Origin: Chlamydiota bacterium
GTDB lineage: Bacteria > Auribacterota > JACPWU01
Reading direction: 5' to 3'
Length of the DNA: 32,000 nt
Assembly: GCA_016196885.1 (NCBI GenBank)
Contig: JACPWU010000038.1
Location: 1-32,000 of the forward strand
Part shown: one piece after another, positions 1 through 28,986 of the stretch
Numbering within the stretch: position 1 is the stretch's first letter
Layout of the letters: each line of letters opens with the position of its first letter
The notes under the pieces: model-generated
Databases searched by the model: none
The model's input: only the letters and a program-made list of their open reading frames with translations
What the model was told of the DNA's origin: nothing
Program-made: the position numbers and the translations under genes

Positions 1-270
1 GAAAGTGGATGATAGATGTTGGATTCCTTTCTCTCGTTCAAGCTTGTGTAGTCGCCCGATTCATCGGGCAGCCCCATAAATGGGGCGACTACAAAATAAG
101 GGAGGCGAGGTAGGGCGGGGCTTTCATTGCACACGATGACCCCCAAAAGGGTCATTGAAATTACATAAGAGGGGAGAAAATCCCTCCCCTTGGGGACAAG
201 GGGCATTTCTCTCCCCGTAGTTACCCCAGGGGGCTATTTCGTTGAGGGGAGTTGGAGGGGTTAAAAGGAG

Positions 271-3863: not shown

Positions 3864-3950
3864 CTGTGAGTGGTGAGGGGTGAGTCGTGAGTAAAAAAAT
3901 AATACTTTTAAAACTCACCCCTCACCGCTCACCTTTCACCCCTCACGACT
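3864..3950. repeat. Hairpin built from inverted heptamer arrays: (NNGTGAG)x4 facing (NCTCACC)x5
   Basis: GTGAGTGGTGAGGGGTGAGT (3866-3885) pairs with ACTCACCCCTCACCGCTCAC (3913-3932), 19 Watson-Crick pairs plus one G-T. Both arms have 7-nt periodicity. It starts 7 nt after the ridA stop and has no U-tract. Confidence 0.8.
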
Positions 3951-4788: not shown

Positions 4789-5780
4789 TCAAAAAAGGCG
4801 TGAGTTATTTTTCCAATCGCTATCTGTCTCATTTCAAAGAAGATCTAGTCGAAATTCAGTCTTTCCCTTTTCATTATATTCTTCATACCTTCAGCGAAAA
4901 TGATTTGGCTTATTATCGGGGAACTTTGCAAAAGATGATTGCGCTTTCCAAGGAGGCGGGGCTCCAGGTGTATGTGGATCCTTGGGGGGTGGGAGGGGTT
5001 TTTGGCGGCGAGGCCTTTTCGAGGTTTGTAGCACAGCATCCTGAAGAATGTCAGGTGCTCTCTTCGGGACGTAGGCTCGCGGCGGCATGTCCGGCTCGCC
5101 CTCGCTTTTTAGATTTTATGAAGGGGTGGCTGGAAGCAGTTTCTCAATTAAAATCCGATGTTGTTTTTTGGGATGAGCCCCATTTTTATTTTGAAAATAA
5201 CTTGACCTCAAGAAACTCAAGTGAAGATTGGGCCTGCTGTTGTGATTTTTGTCGACATGAATTTAAAAAGCAGTGGGGCCATGAAATGGGTCCCGAGCTA
5301 ACCGCAGAGATTCTTACATTTCGGGAGGAGTGTCTCATTTCATTTTTGAGGAGTCTTTGCAGTCGAGCCCATCAATTGGGTTTTAAAAATGCGGTTTGTC
5401 TGGTTCCCAAATTCGAAAAAATTTTAGGAATAGAGCATTGGGAGAAAGTAGCTTCTTTACCAGAAGTAGACATTTTGAGCGCTGATCCTTATGCCATCCT
5501 TTTGAATGTCCAGGTGCGAGATTTTGTGAGAGAAATCACTCAACGTGTGACAGGCTTGGCGCAAAAATTTGGAAAAGAATCCGAGATTTGGGTCCAGGCC
5601 TTTCGAATCCCGAAAGGCCGCGAAGAAGAGGTGACGTGGGCCATTCAAGAAGCCTCTTCCGGGAAGCCCTCTCGTTTGGCGGTGTGGTCTCATCGGGGGA
5701 CGGAGGCGATGTCTGAGCTTTCATGCGATCGTCCAGAGCTGGTTTGGGAAAAGGTGAGAGAAGGATTTCATGGTCGCTAG
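4785..5780 (+). CDS. Hypothetical protein, possibly a clan GH-A-like TIM-barrel hydrolase
   Basis: 331 aa, with the start overlapping the upstream stop (ATGA). VVFWDEPHF resembles the NEP acid/base strand of clan-A glycosidases, and EIWVQAF is a possible nucleophile strand. The assignment is weak. Confidence 0.4.
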   Translation: MIKKGVSYFSNRYLSHFKEDLVEIQSFPFHYILHTFSENDLAYYRGTLQKMIALSKEAGLQVYVDPWGVGGVFGGEAFSRFVAQHPEECQVLSSGRRLAAACPARPRFLDFMKGWLEAVSQLKSDVVFWDEPHFYFENNLTSRNSSEDWACCCDFCRHEFKKQWGHEMGPELTAEILTFREECLISFLRSLCSRAHQLGFKNAVCLVPKFEKILGIEHWEKVASLPEVDILSADPYAILLNVQVRDFVREITQRVTGLAQKFGKESEIWVQAFRIPKGREEEVTWAIQEASSGKPSRLAVWSHRGTEAMSELSCDRPELVWEKVREGFHGR

Positions 5781-8533: not shown

Positions 8534-8729
8534 TAATAACAGTTTAGCACCCATTCTCCCTCAAGGGAACCGAGGCGGTTTTTGATGGGGCGTTGAAGTC
8601 GTTCGCGAGCATGGTACCTCGACGAATAGTCGAGGTGAGCGAACGACTTCGCCGAGCTCGTCCCGATCGCTGGTCGGGGCGAGCGTCCCCATCAAAAATT
8701 GCCTCGGTTCCCGTAGCTAAACTATTACG
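8534..8729. repeat. ~196-nt branched imperfect palindrome (possible structured RNA or palindromic repeat element)
   Basis: Nested pairings: AGTTTAGC 8541-8548 with GCTAAACT 8716-8723; GGGAACCGAGGC 8565-8576 with GCCTCGGTTCCC 8701-8712; GGTTTTTGATGGGG 8577-8590 with CCCCATCAAAAATT 8687-8700 (12/14); GAAGTCGTTCGC 8595-8606 with GCGAACGACTTC 8639-8650. There is an apical hairpin CCTCGAC/GTCGAGG (8617-8635) and a side hairpin GCTCGTCCCGA/TCGGGGCGAGC (8656-8684). Confidence 0.7.
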
Positions 8730-8749: not shown

Positions 8750-9529
8750 ATGCTACCACGTTCGTTTCATAAAAATCGCTTTCTTATTTTTGGCCACCGC
8801 GGCTCTCCTCTTCGTGTTTGTGAGAACAGCCTCGAAAGTTTTGAAAAAGCCTTTGAAGAGGGTGCAGACGGCGTGGAATGTGATGTTCGGTTAACGAGCG
8901 ATAAAAAGGTTTTTGTCTTTCACGATGAGAAAATCGAGCGGCTGACAAAGGCAAAAGGGTTTTTCAAAAATCATTCTTCTCAAAATATTCGAAGGCTTTT
9001 TTTGAAAGGTCCCAAACCTCTTCGCATTCCAACTTTGGAGGTCGTGTTAAAAAAAATGGGAAAGAAAGGGCTTTTTTACATTGAGTTGAAAGAAGGAACC
9101 CTGCCTCAGAAATCATGGCCTTTGCTTGCATGGAACACAATGAAAATTGTTCAAAAATATAATTTTTTGAATCGTTCGATGCTGGTTTCTTTTAATCACA
9201 AGCTCATTCGATGGATCAAAGAAAAAGACACTCGATTTTTAACAGGTCTTAATTTTTCAACGGCCGGTGAGCTTCGACAAGCTCGTAAGACAGGCTTTCA
9301 ATACCTTGATTGTCTGTGTCCGAGTATTTCGTGTTTAACCCTTTCCTTGATGAAAGAGGCCCGTGCGCATTCTCTGGATGTGATTGTCTGGGGAGTCAAT
9401 GATGAAAAGGATTTTAGGAAGGCTGTAAAATTAAATGTGAGGGGCGTTGTTTCGGATGATCCCATGAGAATGGTGGAATACCTAGCCCGCTTTTCTCATC
9501 AGATTTCGTCGCGAGAGCGCCAAGTCTGA
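8750..9529 (+). CDS. Glycerophosphodiester phosphodiesterase (GDPD family)
   Basis: FGHRGSP...ENSLESFEKAFEEGADGVECDVRLTSDKKVFVFHD is the canonical GDPD N-terminal motif set. The last ~16 codons lie inside the 9482-9589 inverted repeat. Confidence 0.85.
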   Translation: MLPRSFHKNRFLIFGHRGSPLRVCENSLESFEKAFEEGADGVECDVRLTSDKKVFVFHDEKIERLTKAKGFFKNHSSQNIRRLFLKGPKPLRIPTLEVVLKKMGKKGLFYIELKEGTLPQKSWPLLAWNTMKIVQKYNFLNRSMLVSFNHKLIRWIKEKDTRFLTGLNFSTAGELRQARKTGFQYLDCLCPSISCLTLSLMKEARAHSLDVIVWGVNDEKDFRKAVKLNVRGVVSDDPMRMVEYLARFSHQISSRERQV

Positions 9530-9589
9530 CGACGCAGACGAGTCGGAATTGGCGCTCGCAGAAGAAATGTGATGAGAAATGCGGGCTAG
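9482..9589. terminator. Long inverted repeat between convergent genes (putative bidirectional terminator or repeat element)
   Basis: The ~42-nt arm 9482-9523 faces the ~41-nt arm 9549-9589, imperfectly, for example CTAGCCCGC..TCTCATCA..CGCGAGAGCGCCAA against TTGGCGCTCGC..TGATGAGA..GCGGGCTAG. It sits between the GDPD stop (9529) and the CPBP stop (9597). Confidence 0.6.
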
Positions 9590-9596
9590 CCTTCTT

Positions 9597-10361
9597 TTAA
9601 AACATCCTCGGGGCCGTATACAGCGCAAAGATATTTAAAATTGCATGAGTGAAGAAAGCTGTTTCCAGTCCGTAGCGGTTCATGAGATGTCCGAGGGCGA
9701 GTCCAATCAAAAATGTTTGTGTAAATTTAATTTCCCAGGCGGATAAAATTCCCAAATGGGCCGTGGCAAAGATGAGAGAACTTCCAATGATAGCCATCCA
9801 GACTCCTCCCTTTTTCTTTCTCAAGAGGTAAGCCAAAAAGGTTTGAAGAAAAAGTCTAAAAATACTTTCTTCGTAAAAGGCGACCAGAATAAAAAAAAGG
9901 GCTGAACTGACAGGGATGACTTGAGCGCCCGAATGATTTTCCAACAGTTTGGCCTCTAGTGGAGGGAAGAGCTTAAAGAGGATGTAAGTGAAAGAGCAAA
10001 TGAGGAGAGAATAGAGAAGAATGATTTTCAGACGGGACAAAAGGTTTTGGATTTTCAGACGATGCCTGGCCCGACTCAAAGAAAGGATGACGGGAAGGCT
10101 GGGTCTTTTTAATTTCCGGCACAACATCATCCCCGTCGTGATAGCCAGGGACAGGGTCACGAAATGAAACAGGGCAATCAGCCAATTCTGGGTCCAAAGG
10201 CTTCGAAGAATGAGAACCCCGAGTTCGAGAAGAACAAAGAGAGATGCCGTATTCTTACCGAAATTCCAATAAATTAGGCCGGCTCTTTTGCCTTTCAAGT
10301 AAAAAAAAGCGCTCCCTAAAATCAGGAGGGTGAGCGAGATTTGTAAAAGAGTCGCAAACAT
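9597..10361 (-). CDS. CPBP family intramembrane glutamic endopeptidase (CAAX protease/Abi-like)
   Basis: Polytopic membrane protein with the EExxxR motif (YEESIFRLF), FxxxH (FATAHL) and HxxxN (HAILN). Confidence 0.8.
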   Translation of the reverse strand: MFATLLQISLTLLILGSAFFYLKGKRAGLIYWNFGKNTASLFVLLELGVLILRSLWTQNWLIALFHFVTLSLAITTGMMLCRKLKRPSLPVILSLSRARHRLKIQNLLSRLKIILLYSLLICSFTYILFKLFPPLEAKLLENHSGAQVIPVSSALFFILVAFYEESIFRLFLQTFLAYLLRKKKGGVWMAIIGSSLIFATAHLGILSAWEIKFTQTFLIGLALGHLMNRYGLETAFFTHAILNIFALYTAPRMF

Positions 10362-11722: not shown

Positions 11723-13057
11723 GTGAGTCTTTCAATGTCTTGCGATCTCTTTGATGTGATCATCGTAGGTGCAGGGCCTGCAGGCATTGCGGCTGCGATG
11801 GTGAGTGCTCGAGCAGGTCTTTCGACGGTGCTTTTAGAAAGGGGCAATTACCCCGGTTCCAAAAATCTTTTCGGCGGCATTCTTTTCACCCCTGAACTGG
11901 AAAAGCTCGTTCCTTCTTTTCTCGAGAAAGCCCCCTTAGAGCGTCACATGAGCCGTCGCCGATTTTCTTTTTTGACGACCGATGGAGAATTGGCGCTCGA
12001 TCTTTGGTCCAACCGTTTTAATCAACCTCCCTTTAACCATTCCTTCACAGTGATGCGATCTAAGTTTGATCGTTGGTTTGCGACCCAGGCTGAAGAAGCG
12101 GGCGTTCAGCTTCTCACGGGGGTGGTCGTGGACGATCTTGTTTGGAAAGATGAAAAGGTGGTAGGCATCAAGGCCCGGGGAGAGAAGGAAGGACAATTTG
12201 ATGAATTGTACGCCTCTCTTGTGATTTGTGCGGAAGGGGCCAATTCTCTCTTGGCTGAAAAATCAGGTTTGAGGTCCGGAAAAAGCAAAATGACACCTCA
12301 AAATCGGACGGTGGCGGTCAAGGAAGTCCTTCGATTGACGAAGGAAAAAATTCAGGACCGATTTAATGTGCGTGAAAAAGAAGGGGTTTCCGTGGTGTAT
12401 CTGGGGGAGGTAGTCAAGGGAGCTTTGGGAACGGGTTTTCTCTACACGTATGAAGATTCCATTTCGGTCGGATTGGGTTGTGAAATGAAGGATCTCATTG
12501 ACCGAAAAATGGCCCCCTATGATCTTTTGGATCACATGAAATCACATCCGGTCATTGCACCTCTCATCGAAGGTGGGGAGGTGATTGAATATTCCACGCA
12601 CATGATTCCGGAAGACAGCTTCAGAAATTTGCCTGAGCTTGCGACGCACGGCCTCATGTTGGTGGGAGACTCGGCGGGTTTAATCAATAACTCTATTTTT
12701 CAAGAAGGGACGAACATGGCGATAGCCTCGGGCCTTTTCGCGGGGGAGACCGCGGTCGAAGCCAAGCAGAAAAAAGATTTTTCTCTTTCAACGTTGTCGC
12801 GGTATCGAGAAAAGTTAGAGAATTCTTTTGTCTTAAAAGACATGCGCCATTATGGTGGTTTCCTGGACATGATGCGCGAGCATCGAGAATATTTGGGATT
12901 GTATCCAGAGTTGACTCTGGAGTTTTTGGTGAATTATTTCACGGTGGATGGACGGTCGAAAAAGGAAATAAAAAAAGAGACTTTTCGAAAATTGAGAAAA
13001 AAAATCAGCATTCCGAAGTTAATCATGGACATGATCCGGGCTCGAAAAATGATTTAA
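11723..13057 (+). CDS. fixC: FAD-dependent electron-transfer-flavoprotein:quinone oxidoreductase FixC-like
   Basis: DVIIVGAGPAGIAAA dinucleotide-binding motif, ~440 aa, followed by a FixX-like ferredoxin gene. The start could be ATG 11735. Confidence 0.8.
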   Translation: MSLSMSCDLFDVIIVGAGPAGIAAAMVSARAGLSTVLLERGNYPGSKNLFGGILFTPELEKLVPSFLEKAPLERHMSRRRFSFLTTDGELALDLWSNRFNQPPFNHSFTVMRSKFDRWFATQAEEAGVQLLTGVVVDDLVWKDEKVVGIKARGEKEGQFDELYASLVICAEGANSLLAEKSGLRSGKSKMTPQNRTVAVKEVLRLTKEKIQDRFNVREKEGVSVVYLGEVVKGALGTGFLYTYEDSISVGLGCEMKDLIDRKMAPYDLLDHMKSHPVIAPLIEGGEVIEYSTHMIPEDSFRNLPELATHGLMLVGDSAGLINNSIFQEGTNMAIASGLFAGETAVEAKQKKDFSLSTLSRYREKLENSFVLKDMRHYGGFLDMMREHREYLGLYPELTLEFLVNYFTVDGRSKKEIKKETFRKLRKKISIPKLIMDMIRARKMI

Positions 13058-13124
13058 CGCTGTGCCGAAAAGATGTGTTGATGTACCAATGTAATAAGGA
13101 ATTTTATATCATTGAGGAGGTCAT

Positions 13125-13406
13125 ATGGCTAAAAAGATATCGCTAGAGGACCGCCTGTTTCTCGTTCAAAGGAATTTTGGCAAGAAAAGTCATATCACGA
13201 TCGATCAAGAGGCGTTTCGAAAAGATCCCGTGAAGCCCATTCTTTTTATTTGCCCTGCTAGAGTTTTCCTTCTCAATGAATCTTCCGGGGAGTGTGTGAT
13301 CAATCACGAAAATTGCCTCGAATGTGGGACCTGCCAAGTCGCAAGTCGCTATGTGAAGTGGACGAATCCCAGCAGCGGGTTTGGGGTGACTTATAAGTAC
13401 AGTTAG
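13125..13406 (+). CDS. fixX: Ferredoxin-like protein FixX
   Basis: 93 aa with CxxCxxC (NCLECGTCQVA) and the typical position downstream of fixC. Confidence 0.8.
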   Translation: MAKKISLEDRLFLVQRNFGKKSHITIDQEAFRKDPVKPILFICPARVFLLNESSGECVINHENCLECGTCQVASRYVKWTNPSSGFGVTYKYS

Positions 13407-13499
13407 AAGACAGAATTGAGAATTCAGAATTCAGAAGACAGAAGAAAACATACCTTACCTATTCTGTCTTCTGAATTCTGAATTCTCAATTCTGTCTTC
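13406..13499. terminator. Perfect 38-bp hairpin made of inverted heptamer arrays (GAAKWCA units), between convergent fixX and exbD
   Basis: 13406-13443 is the exact reverse complement of 13462-13499, with an 18-nt loop. The TTCTNNN array continues to 13524 (9 units), into the exbD 3' coding end. Confidence 0.85.
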
Positions 13500-13913
13500 T
13501 CAATTCTGAATTCTAGCTTCTGGCTCTGTCAACGCTATAACCCGCTTAAACCCTGCCAGTTGAATTTGATCCATGACCTCAATCGCCAGCCCATAGGCGG
13601 CCTTTTTATCGGCTTCCAAAGTGACCATGGGATCCTTCAAACGTGACTTTTCCATTTTAAGTTTTCCGGGAAGTTGAGTAAGAGCAATTTCATCATGGTT
13701 GAGAAAAATTTTTCCATCGGCCGTAATACTGAGCGTGATTTTCTCTTCTTCAATTTTTTGAGATTGATGGCCATGGGGAAGTTCAATTTGAACCGCCGGT
13801 TTTTCGACGAACGTGGTTGTGACCAGAAGGAAAATGATAATGGTAAACATCAAATCAATCAGAGAAGTGATTTGAATGCTCGGTTTTCCTTTAGCACGCG
13901 TTTGAAATTTCAT
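13500..13913 (-). CDS. exbD: Biopolymer transport protein ExbD/TolR
   Basis: 137 aa with an N-terminal TM helix carrying the SLIDLMFTIIIFLL motif, downstream of an ExbB-like gene. Confidence 0.85.
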   Translation of the reverse strand: MKFQTRAKGKPSIQITSLIDLMFTIIIFLLVTTTFVEKPAVQIELPHGHQSQKIEEEKITLSITADGKIFLNHDEIALTQLPGKLKMEKSRLKDPMVTLEADKKAAYGLAIEVMDQIQLAGFKRVIALTEPEARIQN

Positions 13914-16924: not shown

Positions 16925-18004
16925 ATGCTACCTTGGCTAGGGCTGGTCATTACGGTATTGATTTTTGCTGTGGGTGTACTCCTCTTCATTCCCTTTTGGA
17001 GAAAAGAAGCCCATTCCAGAGGGGCTTCGTTTGAAAAAACTTTAGAAAGTTTGCGTTCAGAAGTCCGTCTCAATTTGGATGGGAATACGCAGCTCATTCA
17101 ACAACAGCTTCTGGGCATTTTAAAACAAGTGGGCGATCAACTTTATCAGGCGCGGCAGGATTTAGGAGGGAGGCTTGAAGGGACGGTTCGTGTGGTGGGG
17201 GAATTGCAAAATAAATTAGGAAAGCTCGAAGAGTCTAATCGCCAAGTTTATGAAGTGGGACGTGACATTGCCCGGCTTCAAGAGATTTTAAGGGCGCCCA
17301 AATTGAGAGGAGGTTTGGGTGAATTCTTTTTAGGGGACCTTTTAAGCCAGATCATTCCTCCCGAATATTTTTCTCTTCAATATGGTTTTCGCTCAGGGGT
17401 CAAAGTGGATGCGGTCATTCGCCTGGGCGGAAAACAGTTGGTTCCTGTAGATTCAAAATTTCCTTTGGAAAATTTCTTAAAGATTCTCAGTGCCTCGGGT
17501 GACTTAGATAAAAGGTCTTATCGCAGGCAATTTTTGACGGATGTAAAGAAACACATTGATGCCATTGCCTCCAAATACATTTTGCCAGATGAGGGGACTT
17601 TTGATTTTGCGCTCATGTATATCCCGGCGGAAAATGTTTATTATGAAACCATTATCAAAGATGAAGGCGATTCCGAGCATTCCCTCTTTCAATATGCCTT
17701 GGCGAAAAGGGTGGTTCCGGTCTCACCCAATAGTTTTTATGCGTACTTGCAGGTCATTTTGCTTGGGCTTAAGGGAATGAAAATCGAAGAAAGGGCCTTG
17801 GAAACCATTGGTCAATTGAGGCGGCTCTCGGATGAATTTTCAAAATTTAGAGAGGATTTTGATCGTGTAGGAGCCCATTTATCCAATGCAAAAGGCAGCT
17901 TCGAAAAGGCCGAGAAACGTCTCGGCAAATTCGGTGAGAGGCTTTCCGATGTGAGTGCGCTAGAACCTGAGAAGGCAAAGGCATTGGCGCAAGAAGTTGT
18001 TTAG
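16925..18004 (+). CDS. rmuC: DNA recombination protein RmuC
   Basis: N-terminal TM helix, a coiled-coil region, then VDSKFPLENF and MYIPAENVYYE motifs. I moved the start from the ORF-track 16787 to ATG 16925, because the upstream part overlaps the EAL gene. Confidence 0.85.
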   Translation: MLPWLGLVITVLIFAVGVLLFIPFWRKEAHSRGASFEKTLESLRSEVRLNLDGNTQLIQQQLLGILKQVGDQLYQARQDLGGRLEGTVRVVGELQNKLGKLEESNRQVYEVGRDIARLQEILRAPKLRGGLGEFFLGDLLSQIIPPEYFSLQYGFRSGVKVDAVIRLGGKQLVPVDSKFPLENFLKILSASGDLDKRSYRRQFLTDVKKHIDAIASKYILPDEGTFDFALMYIPAENVYYETIIKDEGDSEHSLFQYALAKRVVPVSPNSFYAYLQVILLGLKGMKIEERALETIGQLRRLSDEFSKFREDFDRVGAHLSNAKGSFEKAEKRLGKFGERLSDVSALEPEKAKALAQEVV

Positions 18005-18366
18005 TGAACTGACTTGTGATTGAAAAGTATATCCTTCAAAACGTGTTCAACTTCTCTCAATGTGCCCTTTCCTAAAGATCCCAACTTCCTTTTGATAAGG
18101 GAATGATGTAAAGAGTGTATTTTATCTACGATGATAGCGGATGGTTTTTTAAAACCAGAAGGGTGATAATCAGGATGTGAAGTATCTATTCTGATTAAGA
18201 AAGATCCCTCTCTTCTGATATTAGAGGTTACGAGGCAAAGGATCACATCCTTTTCTTGAAGGTTGTAGGATGTTGTGGAAAGTACCACGGCAGGGCGGAC
18301 CTTTTGAGAGGTAAGATCGGTGTAAGGAAAAACAGTCAGAACAATATCTCCCTGAGAAAGATTCAT
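18001..18366 (-). CDS. PemK/MazF-family toxin (type II TA endoribonuclease)
   Basis: GDIVLTVFPYTD...KVRPAVVLS...ILCLVTSN pattern. The start overlaps the upstream stop (ATGA). Confidence 0.8.
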   Translation of the reverse strand: MNLSQGDIVLTVFPYTDLTSQKVRPAVVLSTTSYNLQEKDVILCLVTSNIRREGSFLIRIDTSHPDYHPSGFKKPSAIIVDKIHSLHHSLIKRKLGSLGKGTLREVEHVLKDILFNHKSVH

Positions 18367-18608
18367 ACCGGATAGCCATCATCAAGAGTGTAAATATCTT
18401 CTTCCTTGTCGTGGAGGAAGGAATGCGAAGGATCATTTTTTGAAATCCATTCTAAGATTTCTTCGTCGGTTGTTTCAAAATCTTGATCTGTAAAATAGAA
18501 GAAGGTCTCATTGGGGATTGTTCCTAGCTCTTGATAGCTTGGCTTAGAAATTTCATTACTTCCCAGAACGAAGAAAAGGAGTGAATTTCCAGTCCGACTC
18601 TTATTCAT
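18363..18608 (-). CDS. Putative acidic antitoxin partner of the MazF-like toxin
   Basis: 81 aa with a D/E-rich C-terminal half (TDQDFETTDEEILEW...DKEEDIYTLDDG). It is ATGA-coupled on both sides. The assignment rests on position and composition only. Confidence 0.5.
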   Translation of the reverse strand: MNKSRTGNSLLFFVLGSNEISKPSYQELGTIPNETFFYFTDQDFETTDEEILEWISKNDPSHSFLHDKEEDIYTLDDGYPV

Positions 18609-19742: not shown

Positions 19743-19932
19743 GATGTTGTATTTAAAAGTGTGTCCTTTTATTGATGCGGGTGGCCCGACTGGGGGTCCC
19801 CCGCTGATCGCCAGCAGGTCGAGACTTGAAAATTACTCTTCAAGAACCAAATCGAGACCGATGCCGTCAGCGGGGGTGAGGAGGGACAGGACCCGCCTCC
19901 TCTTAAAAGGGCACACTTTTAAATACACGATC
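19743..19932 (+). mobile_element. Non-autonomous TIR element (MITE-like), copy 1, 190 bp
   Basis: Termini GATGTTGTATTTAAAAGTGTGTCCTTTT ... AAAAGGGCACACTTTTAAATACACGATC. Flanked by the direct repeat TGAACTGT (19735-19742 and 19933-19940). A second copy lies at 24797-24989. Confidence 0.8.
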
Positions 19933-19986
19933 TGAACTGTACGCTGAACGCTAATCGCTGTACGCTTTTTCATGGAGATTAGAAAC

Positions 19987-21660
19987 ATGAGTCAAAATTT
20001 AAAACATCGTAGCAGTGTCTTAACCGATGGTGTGGACCGCTCACCTGCTCGTGCCATGTTGAAGGGGATTGGCTTTACCGATGAGGATTTAAGCCGTCCC
20101 TTGATCGGCGTTGCCAATACCTGGATCGAAGTCATGCCCTGTAATTTTCATCTTCGGCGATTATCTGAAAAAGTGAAAGAGGGAATTCGTGCGGCCGGAG
20201 GAACGCCGATTGAATTTAATACCATTGCAGTTTCGGATGGAATTTCCATGGGAACGGAAGGGATGAAGGCCTCTTTGATCAGTCGCGAAGTTGTGGCGGA
20301 TTCCATTGAACTTGTGGTGCGGGGTCATCTCTTCGATGGCGTGGTGGCTCTTTCAGGCTGTGACAAAACCATTCCAGGAACTGTGATGGCCTTGGCGCGG
20401 CTGGATTTACCTTCGGTGATGCTTTATGGAGGCTCGATCCTGCCGGGGCAATTTCAGGGGCATGATGTGACCATTCAAGATGTTTTTGAGGCTGTAGGGG
20501 CTTGCTCTGCCGGGAAAATGAATTTGGATCAATTGCGCGATTTGGAGAATCATGCCTGTCCTGGCGCGGGGGCCTGCGGGGGGCAGTTCACGGCCAATAC
20601 CATGGCGATTGCGATGGAGATGTTGGGCATTTCTCCCATGGGGAGCGCAAGCGTTCCCGCGATGGATCCTAAAAAGGATGAGGTCGCTTTTCAAATGGGA
20701 CAAGTTGTGATGAATGCCCTTAAAAATGATTTGCGGCCAAGCAAAATCATCACTCACAACGCGCTTGAAAATTCCATTGCCTCCATTGCCTTGACGGGGG
20801 GATCCACCAATGGGGTTTTGCATTTGCTCGCGATTGCGTATGAACTTGGCATTCCCTTGGCCATGGAGGATTTTGACCGCATCAGTTCTCGCACCCCGCT
20901 TCTGGGAGATTTAAAACCGGGCGGCCGCTTTGTTGCAACCGATCTTTACAAAGCAGGGGGCACCCGTTTGGTCGCTCAACGATTGAAGGATGCAAATCTA
21001 CTTCACCGAAATGAAATGACGATTACTGGAAAGAAAATGGGAGAGGAGGCCTCTCTAGCTCAAGAAACTCCGGGCCAGGTAGTCCTGCGGCCGCTCTCAA
21101 AGCCTTTGAAACCTACCGGTGGTTTTGTGATTTTAAAAGGGAATCTTTCTCCGGAGGGATGTGTGGTGAAAGTTGCAGGCCATGAACGCATGTATCAAAA
21201 AGGGCCGGCGCGTGTGTTTGACAGTGAGGAGGCCGCTTTCGAGGCAGTTCGGGCCCGGAAAATTAAATCGGGAGATGTGGTGGTCATTCGCTATGAAGGT
21301 CCGAAGGGAGGGCCTGGCATGCGGGAAATGCTGGCGGTGACAGCGGCCCTCGTGGGAGAGGGCCTTGGAGAGAGTGTTTCACTTTTGACAGACGGTCGAT
21401 TTTCAGGAGCGACGCATGGACTCATGGCAGGACATGTTTCTCCAGAGGCGGCTTGCGGCGGTCCGATTGCAGCTTTAAAGGATGAAGATCAAATTATTTT
21501 TGATATTAAAAATCGTCAATTAAATGTTGAACTTTCAGATGAAGAAATGCGTCTCCGGCTAGAAAGATGGACGCCTCCAAAGCCTCACTATCAAAAAGGT
21601 GTCATGGCCAAATATGCTAAAATGGTCTCTTCGGCGGCAAAGGGGGCGGTGACGGGGTAA
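19987..21660 (+). CDS. ilvD: Dihydroxy-acid dehydratase
   Basis: [19 protein letters not shown] and [16 protein letters not shown] motifs. I prefer the start at ATG 19987 (GGAGA 10 nt upstream) over 19972. Confidence 0.92.
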
Positions 21661-21785
21661 AAAATCAAAATTCAAAAATCAAATATCAAAATGACATATT
21701 AAAATTCAAAATGTTCCAATATCCGAGCAGATGTAGAAATTTTAATTTTTGATTTGTCATTTTGATTTTTAAATTTTGATATTTT
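21661..21785. repeat. A/T-rich imperfect hairpin of AAAWTCA heptamer arrays
   Basis: A 12-bp perfect core, ATCAAAATGACA (21685-21696) with TGTCATTTTGAT (21755-21766), is flanked by imperfectly complementary 7-nt-periodic arrays. It begins at the base after the ilvD stop. Confidence 0.55.
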
Positions 21786-21803
21786 AAGGGAGGCAGGACT
21801 CCG

Positions 21804-23105: not shown

Positions 23106-23111
23106 AAAAAA

Positions 23112-23200
23112 GTTCAAAGGTTTAAAGGTTCAAAAGTTCAAAGGAAAAAGCTCCAAAGTGCATCAACCTTTGAACCTTTGAACTTTTGGACCTTTAAACC
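23112..23200. repeat. Hairpin of GTTYAAAR octamer arrays between nfeD and the SPFH gene
   Basis: GTTTAAAGGTTCAAAAGTTCAAAGG (23120-23144) pairs 24/25 with the complement within 23167-23200. Both arms have 8-nt periodicity. Confidence 0.75.
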
Positions 23201-23217
23201 TTCGTAAAGGAGGAACT

Positions 23218-23979
23218 ATGCTTGCCGCTTATCCATTTACTATTTTTATCGGTGTGATTATTTTTTATTTGATGAGCTCTCTTAAGATTTTAAATGAATA
23301 CGAACGGGGCGTCATTTTTAGGCTAGGACGGGTGTTGGGAGAGGCGAAGGGGCCGGGCCTCATTTTTGTGTTTTGGCCCATTGATCGGATGGTGCGGGTT
23401 TCCTTAAGAACCATCACCTTTGACGTTCCTCCCCAGGATATTATTACGAAAGACAATGTCTCTGTGAAAGTAAATGCCGTTGCCTATTTCAGGGTGGTGA
23501 ATCCGGTTCGGGCGATCATTGACGTTGAAAGTTTTCTATATGCGACTTCTCAGTTAGCCCAGACGACCTTGAGATCGGTGTTGGGAGAAGTAGAGTTGGA
23601 CGATTTGCTCAGCAAAAGAGAAACGCTGAATGTAAAATTGCAAAATATTTTGGATACACATACGGACCCTTGGGGGATTAAGGTGTCTTTGGTTGAAGTG
23701 AAACAAGTAGATTTACCTCCCGAAATGGTTCGGGCTATTTCTAAGCAGGCTGAGGCTGAACGGGAAAAGCGGGCCAAAATTATTCATGCTGAAGGAGAAT
23801 TTCAAGCGGCTGAAAAACTTTATCAAGCCTCTCGCGTGATTGCTCAAGAACCTGCTGCGATTCAGCTACGTTATTTACAGACTTTGACGGAGATTGGGGT
23901 TGAGAAAAATACCACCATTATTTTCCCACTGCCGATCAATATTCTGGAAAACTTTATTAAGAAAAATTCAAAAGTTTAA
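23218..23979 (+). CDS. SPFH/Band 7 (stomatin-like) protein
   Basis: [28 protein letters not shown] and the Glu/Ala-rich [16 protein letters not shown] region. Confidence 0.9.
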
Positions 23980-24041
23980 AGGTTCAAAGAATGAGCACCC
24001 ATGAACCTTTGAACTTTTGAACCTTGGAACCTTTGAACTTT
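23967..24041. repeat. Second hairpin of the same GTTCAAAG octamer family, overlapping the SPFH stop
   Basis: TTCAAAAGTTTAAAGGTTC (23967-23985) pairs 18/19 with GAACCTTTGAACTTTTGAA (24003-24021). The right array continues to 24041. Confidence 0.7.
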
Positions 24042-24055
24042 CATAAGGAGGTCTT

Positions 24056-24286
24056 ATGGTCAGCGCCTATATTTTCATTGAAACCGATCATGGAAAGGCA
24101 AAGTCCGTTCGTGAAGACATTCAAAAATTCTCCTTTGTGAAGCGAGTCCATTTGGTGACAGGTCCTTATGATTTGGTCGCCTTTGTCGAAGCCCTCGATC
24201 TGGCTGCCCTGGGTGATTCTATCACTGTGAAGGTCCAGTCTATTCCTGGGGTGGTGAAGAGTCTTACCAATATTGTGGTGGAGTAG
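24056..24286 (+). CDS. Stand-alone Lrp/AsnC ligand-binding (RAM) domain protein
   Basis: 76 aa, YIFIETD...V..V..V.GPYDLVAFVE pattern. There is no HTH domain. Confidence 0.7.
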   Translation: MVSAYIFIETDHGKAKSVREDIQKFSFVKRVHLVTGPYDLVAFVEALDLAALGDSITVKVQSIPGVVKSLTNIVVE

Positions 24287-24310
24287 GCTATTCCAAGGTA
24301 GCGTCTCTAA

Positions 24311-24417
24311 CTTTTCTTTAATGGACTTTGGAGAGGACGGCATTATTTTGCAAAACAAATTGAAATTTTTGCTATTGAAGAGAAGACAAGATGATTGGTC
24401 ATAACCGTGATTACAAG
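24311..24417 (+). pseudogene. Possible remnant of a DUF4258-like toxin gene (frameshifted C-terminal fragment)
   Basis: A 27-codon ORF (24311-24394: MDFGEDGIILQNKLKFLLLKRRQDDWS) plus a +1-frame tail LVITVITRYF (24385-24417) resemble the C-terminal ..G..L.VV....VITV.. end of DUF4258 proteins, which usually precede DUF2283 genes. Recognition by eye only. Confidence 0.25.
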
Positions 24418-24439
24418 GTATTTTTAAAGGGAGGTCTTC

Positions 24440-24676
24440 ATGAAACTCACTTATGATCCTCGCTATAACATTGCCTATTTGCGTCTGCACGAGAAGACAG
24501 ATTCGGTTGAGACGATTCATATCAGCGATGAATTGAATGTGGATATTGCCTCGGATGGGACTGTGTATGGGATTGAACTTTTGAATGCGAATCAGCAATT
24601 GTGTGCAGAAGATGCTGGGAAGCTGGTGTTTGTCAATGAGGCTTTGGGAAAGAGCAAGGAAATTTCATTTAAGTAA
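24440..24676 (+). CDS. DUF2283 family protein
   Basis: MKLTYDPRYNIAYLRL ... VDIASDGTVYGIELLNANQQL matches the DUF2283 pattern (YD-x-x-x-D/N-x-x-Y-I/L ... G-x-I/V-x-G-I-E-I/L). Confidence 0.75.
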   Translation: MKLTYDPRYNIAYLRLHEKTDSVETIHISDELNVDIASDGTVYGIELLNANQQLCAEDAGKLVFVNEALGKSKEISFK

Positions 24677-24796
24677 GAATTTCAAAGTTGGCATGCTAAG
24701 CTGAACGAAGAAGAGGAATAAGATCCCTCGCCCGCCTTTCCGAGCGAGAGCGAGGCTGGATCCCGCCGACGTTGCGTCGGGATCCTCGGGATGACT

Positions 24797-24989
24797 GATC
24801 CAGTATTTAAAAGTGTGTCCTTTGGAAAGGTGGCGGGTCCTGCCGCCCAACCACCCCATCAACGGCATCGGTCTCGATGAGGGATCGAGATGTATAGCTG
24901 ATGCGAATGACTCGACCTGCTGGCGCTTGATGGGGACCCCGTTGGGCGTCACCCGCATGAATAAAGGACACACTTTTAAATACATTATC
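24797..24989 (-). mobile_element. Non-autonomous TIR element (MITE-like), copy 2, 193 bp, inverted relative to copy 1
   Basis: The reverse complement aligns end to end with 19743-19932. Flanked by the direct repeat GGATGACT (24789-24796 and 24990-24997). Confidence 0.8.
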
Positions 24990-25443: not shown

Positions 25444-26166
25444 TTATTGTTTAAACAACCCCTGAATTTTTGTGAGCGACAATTCCTGAAAACTTTTGAG
25501 CACCAGGTCTGACTCTTTTAATTGCGACTTCGAATACGTGTGGGCCAAGGCAAGCGATTTCATCTGGGCCTTGTGAGTTCCTCTCACCCCCGCAATAGAA
25601 TCTTCGATGACCAAACACTCCTGAGGAAGGATTTTTTTGAAGCGGTTTAATTTCTTAAGGGCTAATAAATAACTTTCCGGATCGGGCTTGCTTTTTTTTG
25701 TGTCTTCGGCAGCAATAATCACTTTGAATTTTTTGAGAATCCCCGCCCTTTTCAAAATCCAGCCTATCTCACTTCCCAAAGCAGCCGAGGCAATGGCAAG
25801 CGGGTATTTTTTGGAGAGAATGTTCACCCATTTTTTCACGCCAGCAAAGAGCGTGAGGTGTTTTTCAATATAGGCCTCATAGGCATGCGCTTTCCTCTCT
25901 ACCAGCTTTCTGATTTTTGACCTTGAAATCGGATGTCCCTCTTTGTTTAGAATTTTTTCAAAACAATTTTTATCATCAAAGGCCAAATAATGGCTGTAAT
26001 ACTCTTGGGCGCTTAACCGGATTCCTTCCTCTTTCAAAATTTTCTGAAACATTTTTAAGTGAATCGGTTCATCGTTCACAATGACGCCGTTGAAGTCGAA
26101 GATGATGGCTTTTAATGAAAAAAGTCGTGAGTCGTGAGTCGTGAGTCGTGAGTGTTGAGTTGTCAT
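25444..26166 (-). CDS. HAD-superfamily hydrolase (beta-phosphoglucomutase-like subfamily IA)
   Basis: Motif I IIFDFNGV (the second Asp is Asn), KSKPDPE, and VIEDSIAGVRG. The first ~15 codons are encoded by a 7-nt tandem repeat. Confidence 0.75.
   Translation of the reverse strand: MTTQHSRLTTHDSRLFSLKAIIFDFNGVIVNDEPIHLKMFQKILKEEGIRLSAQEYYSHYLAFDDKNCFEKILNKEGHPISRSKIRKLVERKAHAYEAYIEKHLTLFAGVKKWVNILSKKYPLAIASAALGSEIGWILKRAGILKKFKVIIAAEDTKKSKPDPESYLLALKKLNRFKKILPQECLVIEDSIAGVRGTHKAQMKSLALAHTYSKSQLKESDLVLKSFQELSLTKIQGLFKQ
26124..26165. repeat. Heptanucleotide tandem repeat (GTCGTGA)x4 plus two degenerate units
   Basis: Perfect units at 26124-26151 and degenerate units GTGTTGA, GTTGTCA to 26165. 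It shares the exact 13-mer GTGAGTCGTGAGT with the 3864-3950 hairpin and has no complementary arm nearby. Confidence 0.85.
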
Positions 26167-28254: not shown

Positions 28255-28542
28255 CTATTTGTTTCGATAATGACTTAAGTATCGGTTAATGCTGTTGTGA
28301 TCCCCTATCACATGACAAAAGAAGGTGTCTTTGTCTAATTTCATTGCAATTCTCAAACGGATGTCTGCTCGAATTTCATATTTGTCATGGTTGATTTTCT
28401 TGAATCCAAGGCCCTTAGGAAGGTCACCTTCCTTCAAGGCGGACATGAACTCTTTTAAGAGATCAGAAACTTTTTTTTGATCTTTTGGAAAAAGTTTCTT
28501 GAACTGTTTTTGAAAATGACTAGAAAGGGTGAGATGTTTCAA
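28255..28542 (-). CDS. RelE/ParE-superfamily toxin (type II TA)
   Basis: 95 aa with the pattern ...KG..FKKI...KYEIRADIRLRIAMKLDKDTFFCHVIGDH, directly downstream of an AbrB-type antitoxin gene. Confidence 0.65.
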   Translation of the reverse strand: MKHLTLSSHFQKQFKKLFPKDQKKVSDLLKEFMSALKEGDLPKGLGFKKINHDKYEIRADIRLRIAMKLDKDTFFCHVIGDHNSINRYLSHYRNK

Positions 28543-28551
28543 GTGAAAAGC

Positions 28552-28812
28552 TCACGGGTTAAGAAGGCTGTCAATGTCCTTTTTTGACTTTAATTTTTTC
28601 CACCCCTTTTTCTTTTCATCTTCATGCAGTCGGTCGAGTCCCTCCAATGCTTCTTGGGAGTAGCGGGGTTCCAGATCTACTGGAACGAGAACTAACGTAT
28701 TCCCGCGTGCTTCAACTTTGACAATTTTCTCTTCTCCCATGTTTAGGCATTTCAAGAGATCTGACGGCAAATGAAGGTCGTTTCTGGCATTGATTCTAAG
28801 TGTTAGAGTCAT
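28552..28812 (-). CDS. AbrB/MazE/SpoVT-type antitoxin
   Basis: N-terminal swapped-hairpin pattern LHLPSDLLKCLNMGEEKIVKVEARGNTLVLVP. Confidence 0.65.
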   Translation of the reverse strand: MTLTLRINARNDLHLPSDLLKCLNMGEEKIVKVEARGNTLVLVPVDLEPRYSQEALEGLDRLHEDEKKKGWKKLKSKKDIDSLLNP

Positions 28813-28932
28813 AAAAACCCACCTCTGCCACCAATATACCGTATTGTATTTCTGACTTCAATTAAAAAGTGAACAAAATTCATATATGAAGATATGAACA
28901 ATGGAGGCTCATCCAGGGGAAGGGTGTATCCA

Positions 28933-28962
28933 TAAAAAAAGGAGAGGATTCCTCCTCTCCTT
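28933..28962 (-). terminator. Rho-independent terminator of the large secreted-protein gene
   Basis: On the minus strand, the 10-bp stem AAGGAGAGGA/TCCTCTCCTT with a 4-nt loop is followed by a T7 tract, about 25 nt after the stop at 28987. Confidence 0.75.
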
Positions 28963-28986
28963 TCCCTATACAGAAGGTCTTAAAAA

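Follow-up and report, generated by a model that had tools for sequence, protein, structure and literature searches.

What kind of element is a perfect hairpin whose arms are tandem arrays of a seven-nucleotide word, and which exactly fills the space between the stop codons of two convergent bacterial genes? The hairpin in question (site A below) lies between a fixX-like ferredoxin gene and exbD in the first 32,000 nucleotides (nt) of contig JACPWU010000038.1, part of the metagenome-assembled genome (MAG) GCA_016196885.1 of a Chlamydiota bacterium; this whole 32-kb stretch is the window referred to throughout. The analysis placed it in contig JACOUD010000018.1 of MAG GCA_016178005.1, with window position 1 at contig position 5508. 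A preliminary description of the window had taken site A as the clearest example of a distinct, locus-specific class of 3' elements. We favor, with moderate rather than strong confidence, a different interpretation, namely that site A is one copy among dispersed foldback palindromes of 70-130 nt, in which each arm is a tandem array, inverted relative to the other, of units of 7 or 8 nt.

A perfect periodic hairpin between fixX and exbD

The window gene map, drawn from Pfam scans, places the fixX-like gene (Fer4_ETF_QO) at 13125-13406 on the plus strand, ending in a TAG at 13404-13406, and the convergent exbD gene (PF02472) at 13500-13913 on the minus strand, ending in a TGA at 13500-13502. A repeat search and our own inverted-repeat scan both find two 39-nt arms between them, 13405-13443 and 13462-13500, that are 100% complementary; the stem fills the entire stop-to-stop gap and takes in two bases of the fixX stop and one base of the exbD stop. 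The perfect hairpin first noted here as a 38-nt stem (13406-13443 / 13462-13499) is therefore real and is one bp longer, by the 13405/13500 pair, and its left arm does start at the fixX stop, within the TAG. That arm is made of the units AGAAGAC, AGAATTG, AGAATTC, AGAATTC and AGAAGAC followed by AGAA, the loop (13444-13461) is the 18-nt sequence GAAAACATACCTTACCTA, and the right arm is the exact reverse complement of the left, its last base being the first base of the exbD stop codon. Both arms have a period of 7 according to Tandem Repeats Finder (TRF), and the right array has in addition a 28-nt (four-unit) super-period (13461-13514, 96% matches). The right array also runs past the stem as described, for nine TTCTNNN units in all, to 13524: the portion beyond the stem (13501-13524, minus strand) comprises two bases of the exbD stop, the codons of the ExbD tail PEARIQN and a single base of the codon that precedes them, so the final seven residues of ExbD are translated array units. 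The ExbD tail beyond the conserved ...ALTE is variable in relatives of this genome, i.e. it is not conserved.

Site A is predicted to fold as RNA with a free energy of -66.6 kcal/mol on the plus strand and -65.4 kcal/mol on the minus strand; shuffled versions of the site give -26.7 +/- 3.5 kcal/mol, a z of -11.3, and 0 of 200 were as stable. The hairpin is thus far beyond chance. Could it nevertheless have been created during assembly? The left arm and loop are present solely in the MAG contig, and independent single-run assemblies stop inside the arms. However, Logan contigs match the MAG sequence into the right arm, for 27-30 nt, three relatives have kept the flanking genes in their convergent order (below), the loop is unique, the two arrays are unequal in length, and two comparable hairpins (site E and one at 8576-8672 of sibling-genome locus L129, both below) were recovered in full by independent assemblies. 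We find an assembly artefact very hard to credit.

Similar hairpins elsewhere in the same genome

The four further sites of the preliminary description are also real periodic hairpins. Site B (3866-3946; -43.0 kcal/mol) consists of four GTGAGNN units, a loop and five CTCACNN units, and its 20-bp stem (3866-3885 / 3913-3932) begins 8 nt past the ridA stop. Site C (21660-21787; -30.6 kcal/mol) has AAAATCA arrays with a conserved AAAATGACA...TGTCATTTT core and spans from the ilvD stop to 17 nt short of the nfeD start. Sites D and E are built of 8-mers and belong to one family: site D (23108-23202; -41.5 kcal/mol) has AAAGGTTC / GAACCTTT arrays and a 28-bp stem and lies downstream of the nfeD stop and ahead of the ribosome-binding site of band7. 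Site E (23967-24041; -23.9 kcal/mol) has a 20-bp stem; its left arm overlaps the last codons and stop of band7, and the site as a whole ends 15-18 nt ahead of an asnC-like gene with a strong ribosome-binding site. A sixth site, F, was reached through the single-run Logan contig L127, 4.7 kb beyond the window; it is an eight-unit CAGAAGT/CAGAAGA/CAGAATT array 2 nt past the stop of a comEA-like gene, and the contig ends inside it. The asnC-like gene downstream of site E (24056-24286, plus strand; 76 aa, AsnC_trans_reg-like) is kept after band7 in a relative, and the 185-aa minus-strand open reading frame (ORF) that overlaps it at 24041-24598, which has no Pfam match, is probably spurious.

The proximity of these hairpins to stop codons and the absence of a U-tract, both pointed out previously, hold up on measurement. 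Sites A to E each start from 13 nt before to 11 nt after a stop codon, and none has a U-tract after its stem (the following sequences are CAAUUCUGAAUUCU for A, CUUUCACC for B, CGUAAAGGAGG for D and CCUUGGAACC for E). The contrast that had been drawn with the one canonical intrinsic terminator in the window is also sound, and that terminator is real, although it belongs on the minus strand: it occupies 28931-28963 including its U-run, its hairpin (28938-28963) has an 11-bp GC-rich stem and a 4-nt loop, and it lies 24 nt past the stop of a glucoamylase-like gene. The periodic hairpins resemble intrinsic terminators in being stable stem-loops a few nt past a stop, which between convergent genes could serve both, but their stems are 20-39 bp rather than about 5-15 bp and their loops 15-31 nt rather than 3-8 nt, they lack the U-tract, their arms are periodic, and some copies lie in tight gene strings or in a promoter region. 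A consensus terminator scan showed no enrichment over shuffles and missed the periodic sites. Searched against Rfam with permissive filters, the sites gave only sub-threshold matches to plant and animal microRNA-precursor and small nucleolar RNA models, which are generic long hairpins.

Enrichment relative to controls

How unusual is such a set of hairpins? We scanned for gapless inverted repeats and tested the arm for periodicity (strict criterion: score >= 16 and arm autocorrelation >= 0.7). The controls were 117 loci totalling 1.55 Mb, of which 80 were genome loci from many phyla and 37 were metagenome loci; the genome loci came from a FixC-alignment search, which returned distant phyla only (best 54% identity). 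The strict scan found 4 periodic hairpins in the 32-kb window and 2 in the 1.55 Mb of controls, and a relaxed scan found 12 when run on 124 kb from four related Chlamydiae MAGs and 1 in the controls. Periodic hairpins are thus about 100-fold enriched in this clade of uncultured Chlamydiae. They are not general to the Chlamydiota, to judge from a small sample, since the Simkania plasmid pSn, over its first 50 kb, has no periodic hairpin in the relaxed scan and no heptamer arrays. A scan of genome contigs with ExbB gave no match.

Both control hits of the strict scan come from one genome, that of Endozoicomonas atrinae (NZ_LUKQ02000004.1, our locus L035). They are inverted CCGCTNC heptamer arrays (2008-2080 and 9854-9937 of that locus) situated 7 and 34 nt past ORF stops, and are the same architecture in a gammaproteobacterium, there with what appears to be one word family.

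The repeat words form dispersed families

The words were at first thought to be specific to their loci, but comparison within and between genomes contradicts this. In a self-comparison of a 42-kb composite of the window genome, followed by alignments, sites A and F are 81-85% identical and have an 18-mer in common, and D and E have in common their word, fragments of the loop and the trailing ribosome-binding site. The GTGAGTC word occurs in site B, in an unpaired array (array G, below) and in an inverted pair between convergent genes of a different genome (L007 3598-3700). Site C belongs to a family with at least six copies in the sibling MAG GCA_016178055.1 (L129), six of which it matches at 72-77% identity; L129 also has a 53-nt partial copy at 91%, and the elements of this family share the non-periodic AAAATGACA...TGTCATTTT core. 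Two L129 copies, 11917-12013 and 13114-13211, which flank ilvC and lie 1.2 kb apart, have a common core of about 100 nt that includes the loop and differs by one inserted T. The same L129 locus also has three sites of an ATTGCGG family and, akin to D and E, a GTTTAAA hairpin; in all, periodic hairpins are present at 8 of its 16 junctions of at least 25 nt (five pass the relaxed scan). One family-C copy, at L129 6688-6822, is in the divergent lemA/ilvD promoter region. Words that recur at unlinked loci and in different genomes, with shared loops and cores, point to copying or dispersal rather than independent local invention, and dispersed foldback families fit these data better than such inventions.

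In each of the two genomes a single gene is flanked by two copies of one family, ilvC in L129 and band7 (by sites D and E) in the window, which suggests local copying. A more distant relative, GCA_964640155.1, has its own word, CCAGTCT / CAGTCNC. A CCAGTCT-type array encodes the ExbD tail, without an inverted partner, at L008 10407-10434, and an inverted pair of this type is present at the ilvD-nfeD junction at L131 8583-8660.

Short-read contigs from three sequencing runs end inside the arms of A, B, D, F and a sibling-genome element, which accounts for the fragmentation of assemblies at the repeats; the single-run contigs that end in this manner are L001, L002, L005, L006, L127 and L130. These hairpins are the likely cause of fragmented MAGs and truncated gene ends in this clade.

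If the families are dispersed, might they nonetheless be a mutational by-product that is neither mobile nor functional? On this interpretation common k-mers near gene ends would be lengthened by slippage and paired by template switching, and similar words would reflect a shared mutational preference. Several observations agree with it. Unpaired arrays exist: array G (26123-26160), a perfect GTGAGTC array of 4.4 units 21 nt past the stop of a LOG-family gene; a 4.3-unit heptamer array with 73% matches (19937-19966) that ends 5 nt before the ilvD ATG; the array at the L008 exbD 3' end; and L129 4943-4974. Coding ends are overrun by arrays, CAGAAGA and AAAATCA are over-represented 4-5 times throughout these genomes, the 3' end of band7 in L131 (AAAAGTTAA) resembles the D/E word, and among long simple-sequence repeats of prokaryotes the heptamer is the most common type according to Mrazek 2007, as cited in PMC4679880. 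On the other hand, slippage of common k-mers does not readily account for a core of about 100 nt with a unique loop at two L129 junctions 1.2 kb apart, for non-periodic cores and loop motifs that are conserved within families, or for words (GTTCAAAG, GTGAGTC and ATTGCGG) that are nearly confined to arrays. We therefore judge this explanation improbable, somewhat more so than the selected-element and foldback-class proposals considered below.

Array G lies within the first 15 codons of a HAD-hydrolase ORF whose only start candidate is the ATG at 26166, and it would give this ORF a repeat-encoded N-terminal extension before the conserved IIFDFNGV motif.

Filled and empty junctions in relatives

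Are the hairpins kept at the same places in related genomes? Three relatives (L007, L008 and L009; FixC 74-76% identical) keep the convergent exbD/fixX arrangement, and none of the three has a hairpin at the site orthologous to A or at the one next to ridA. The junctions that hold sites D and E are short elsewhere: nfeD-band7 measures 112 nt in the window against 12 nt (L129) and 16 nt (L131), and band7-asnC has 76 nt in the window against 12 nt (L131). By this comparison, D and E are additions specific to this lineage, by insertion or expansion, in the interval that separates a stop codon from a ribosome-binding site. In junctions of this type that interval is the sole neutral space, which largely explains the position "just after the stop". 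Site D has TAA on both sides, which fits a TA/TAA duplication and also an ancestral TAATAAGGAGG. The arrays also extend into non-conserved coding ends, as in the ExbD tail, the Band7 tail and the HAD N-terminus.

The ilvD-nfeD junction behaves differently. A periodic hairpin is present there in three genomes, and it is built from AAAATCA in the window, from ATTGCGG in L129 and from CCAGTCT in L131 (-36.9 kcal/mol, z = -3.7). The recurrence of the architecture that had been described for the window is in this way extended to its relatives.

Are the hairpins selected 3' elements?

The most serious rival to dispersal is that the hairpins are dedicated, selected 3' elements, either U-tract-independent terminators or stabilizers of mRNA 3' ends, that are kept in place while their sequence turns over; a selected terminator or insulator role deserves serious consideration above all at site A and at the ilvD 3' end. 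None of the six sites in the window genome begins more than about 13 nt from a stop codon. Junctions with ample room (B, L129 13057-13314 and L129 18703-18909) have the hairpin closer to the stop than to the start, the ilvD-nfeD hairpin recurs in three genomes from three words, site A sits exactly between convergent genes, and in Xanthomonas transcript starts and ends at comparable repeats exceed those in a control group (PMC4692102). Against this, U-tracts are absent, D and E are inside a tight nfeD-band7-asnC string with a strong ribosome-binding site directly after each, one copy is in a divergent promoter region, the exbD/fixX and ridA 3' ends of relatives lack a hairpin, and the family structure speaks against an origin in situ. 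The two strands fold equally well: the three stem mismatches are G-U pairs on the sense strand, and whole-site antisense folding is as good or better. The family C alignment displays conserved sequence rather than compensatory change (1 compensatory pair among 26, with pairs that are mostly invariant and so carry little information). Equal folding of both strands and the lack of informative covariation in family C together give no direct sign of selection at the RNA level. We consider it unlikely overall that these are dedicated 3' elements, and of the proposal that they form a distinct class of such elements the recurring, stop-proximal architecture stands, while the dedicated class remains a suggestion: the placement is largely the one expected from purifying selection, and there are the divergent copy and the orthologous sites without hairpins.

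Alternatively, the arrays could be bound by a protein for which the 7-8-nt unit, in single-stranded RNA or DNA, is the recognition site (a cold-shock protein, an S1-type protein or another), and a switch between the hairpin and a protein-coated form would then regulate termination or translation of the next gene. Strict periodicity, recurring words and the position from stop codon to ribosome-binding site are compatible with this idea, CspB binds heptamer repeats with one protein per unit (PMC4679880), and MacGregor 2015 proposed cold-shock proteins as candidate binders of TAACTGA arrays (PMC4679880). Such a reader would, however, face no fewer than eight unrelated words in one clade, with periods of 7 and of 8 nt; no common motif was found and no candidate protein identified, and most units are locked in very stable stems. 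This explanation is highly doubtful.

How might the repeats arise, spread and act?

The favored explanation, dispersed foldback repeats, would operate as follows. Slippage in replication would lengthen and shorten the arms by units and by multi-unit blocks, and the 28-nt block structure, the unit structure and the unpaired arrays could all be its products. The inverted partner would be made or homogenized through intramolecular template switching; the perfect 39-bp arms of site A, in spite of units that differ within an arm, would be the outcome of a recent inverted copying or homogenizing event. Copies would spread through a transposase acting in trans or through recombination, and purifying selection would spare only those inserted where they are harmless, directly after stops. 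Transcribed copies would fold into RNA stems of 20-39 bp at gene ends. A duplex of 20-39 bp would be more like an RNase III substrate than like a protective terminator hairpin. The likeliest effect would be a partial block to read-through and to 3' exonucleases, or an RNase III cut that uncouples neighboring cistrons, and at the fixX/exbD junction it would work in both directions. Termination or RNA processing by these hairpins is therefore plausible from their predicted structures, and we view any such effect as a by-product, perhaps co-opted at some sites.

Several points weigh against this explanation. Pfam hit lists for about 63 kb of the two repeat-rich genomes contain no transposase or RAYT gene, and no target-site duplication is recognizable at the two L129 copies that share the core of about 100 nt. 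CAGAAGA and AAAATCA are common k-mers genome-wide, so their arrays could have arisen independently. The presence of a periodic hairpin at ilvD-nfeD in three genomes with three different words looks like positional conservation, which favors a selected function there. Finally, the data cover a small fraction of each genome and consist of sequence only.

A stronger version of the same idea can be formulated: a new class of bacterial foldback elements, with slippage-prone heptad arms and spread by an enzyme or by hairpin-templated copying, would supply most gene-end hairpins in this environmental Chlamydiae clade, and the hairpins would act as U-tract-independent bidirectional terminators or RNase III sites. 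We regard this as distinctly unlikely in its full form.

Comparison with known repeats

The preliminary description knew of no described equivalent, but there is one. Rehm et al. 2015 (PLoS One, PMC4692102) counted, in each Xanthomonas genome, 70-75 pairs of GGGAATC heptamer arrays that are inverted and convergent. These pairs are strongly biased towards stop codons, which they overlap or approach to within 50 bp, and they are under-represented between divergent ORFs; the number of units varies among related genomes while the pair type is kept, and their function was left unresolved. The Chlamydiae sites are also convergent heptamer arrays on opposite strands, close together and capable of forming a stem-loop, and they too are stop-proximal and rare in divergent junctions (one exception, above). 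The differences are that in Xanthomonas there is one G-rich word per genome, with G-quadruplex potential and typically about 4 units, whereas the repeats described here, in Chlamydiota, draw on several words that are mostly rich in A/T, have periods of 8 as well as 7 nt and stems of up to 39 bp, and in some families contain conserved non-periodic cores or loops. The present words (AGAATTC, AAAATCA, GTTCAAAG and GTGAGNN) do not fit the GGGNATC consensus, and a G run is present in two site B units only. The architecture was thus already described in Xanthomonas, and what is new here is the several A/T-rich families, the 8-nt period, the longer stems, the conserved cores and the other phylum. Our literature search found no description of such repeats in Chlamydiae, and the Waddlia genome paper mentions none.

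REPINs (REP-BIME; Bertels & Rainey 2011, PMC3116915) are extragenic, multi-copy elements of two inverted arms and a spacer that are predicted to form a hairpin in single-stranded DNA or mRNA. The present repeats are similar in forming multi-copy hairpin families, several per genome, with singlets beside doublets. They differ in the arm: a REP arm is a short imperfect palindrome that is recognized by a RAYT, and the arms here are direct tandem arrays without internal palindromes. The Y1_Tnp family is absent from the listed Pfam hits in the approximately 63 kb of the two repeat-rich genomes. A separate, REPIN-like palindrome is also present, TGTAGTCGCCCC-ATTTAT-GGGGC-TG-CCCGATGAATCGGGCGACTACA, in which two small inverted hairpins are enclosed by an outer stem; it has four copies in 5.6 kb, one at window 47-93 and three upstream (L004 85-133, 628-674 and 5399-5461). 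Unrelated metagenome contigs of higher GC contain elements that resemble it: the exact REP-like palindrome had 0 metagenome matches, and a gapped pattern gave 37 unrelated loci (46-66% GC), none with a periodic hairpin.

MITEs (miniature inverted-repeat transposable elements) and bacterial palindromic elements such as Correia/NEMIS and those of Rickettsia are small, non-coding and lineage-specific, are dispersed at gene boundaries and have empty sites in relatives; they sometimes provide stop codons or extend reading frames, and their arms are not known to be internally periodic. The Chlamydiae repeats share with MITEs terminal inverted repeats, a size of 50-500 bp, non-coding sequence and multiple copies, and they have filled and empty sites at nfeD-band7 and band7-asnC, but a target-site duplication was not recognizable at the two L129 copies with the common core, and the approximately 63 kb of the two repeat-rich genomes showed no partner insertion sequence. 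In Drosophila FB and similar foldback transposons the long inverted arms are made of short tandem sub-repeats, on a kilobase scale and sometimes with a transposase, and the resemblance is an anatomical analogy only.

Direct heptamer arrays, such as the cyanobacterial short tandemly repeated repetitive (STRR) sequences and the TAACTGA arrays of Beggiatoaceae (MacGregor 2015, PMC4679880), are intergenic and lie at gene boundaries; BOGUAY has 169 direct sets and one indirect, most of them just upstream of start codons (PMC4679880). Unit size, location at gene boundaries, overlap with ORF ends, patchy phylogeny and suspected slippage are all shared with the present repeats, but those arrays are direct and here the inverted pair is typical. 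The window sites are also long simple-sequence repeats by definition, being arrays of 5-11-nt units longer than chance would give (TRF and the controls above).

Other repeats and small genes of the window

Two further kinds of repeat were found. A GC-rich dispersed repeat of about 190 nt is present at 19748-19932, at 24797-24984 (reverse) and at about 8610-8650 of L127; it has an internal inverted repeat (CCCCCGCTGA...TCAGCGGGGG), its two window copies are 76.6% identical, and it has no Rfam match. The 106-aa ORF called at 24665-24985 is probably this repeat and not a gene. A non-periodic 26-nt inverted repeat (9482-9507 / 9564-9589) lies across the site where the convergent GDPD and Rce1-like genes end, and it has related copies further upstream on the contig, by about 6.3 kb (window -922 to -739). 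Two ordinary toxin-antitoxin-like modules adjoin repeat-rich junctions (18001-18608 and 28255-28812): in one, a small ORF lies upstream of a MazF-like toxin, and the other consists of two small ORFs, of which one gives a weak AbiGii-like match.

Significance

Even if they are neutral, these repeats break short-read assemblies at gene ends, change protein termini (ExbD, Band7 and HAD), generate spurious ORFs in MAG annotation and are usable as strain-typing markers. They also provide a second, independent lineage in which to ask why heptamer arrays often form inverted pairs beside stop codons, a question that the Xanthomonas work left open. If the repeats set transcript ends, gene-boundary signals in a phylum usually called repeat-poor would come from fast-turnover repeat families and not from conserved terminators, and if the reading as a new foldback class were true, transcription-unit boundaries would be built and continually rebuilt by selfish repeats.

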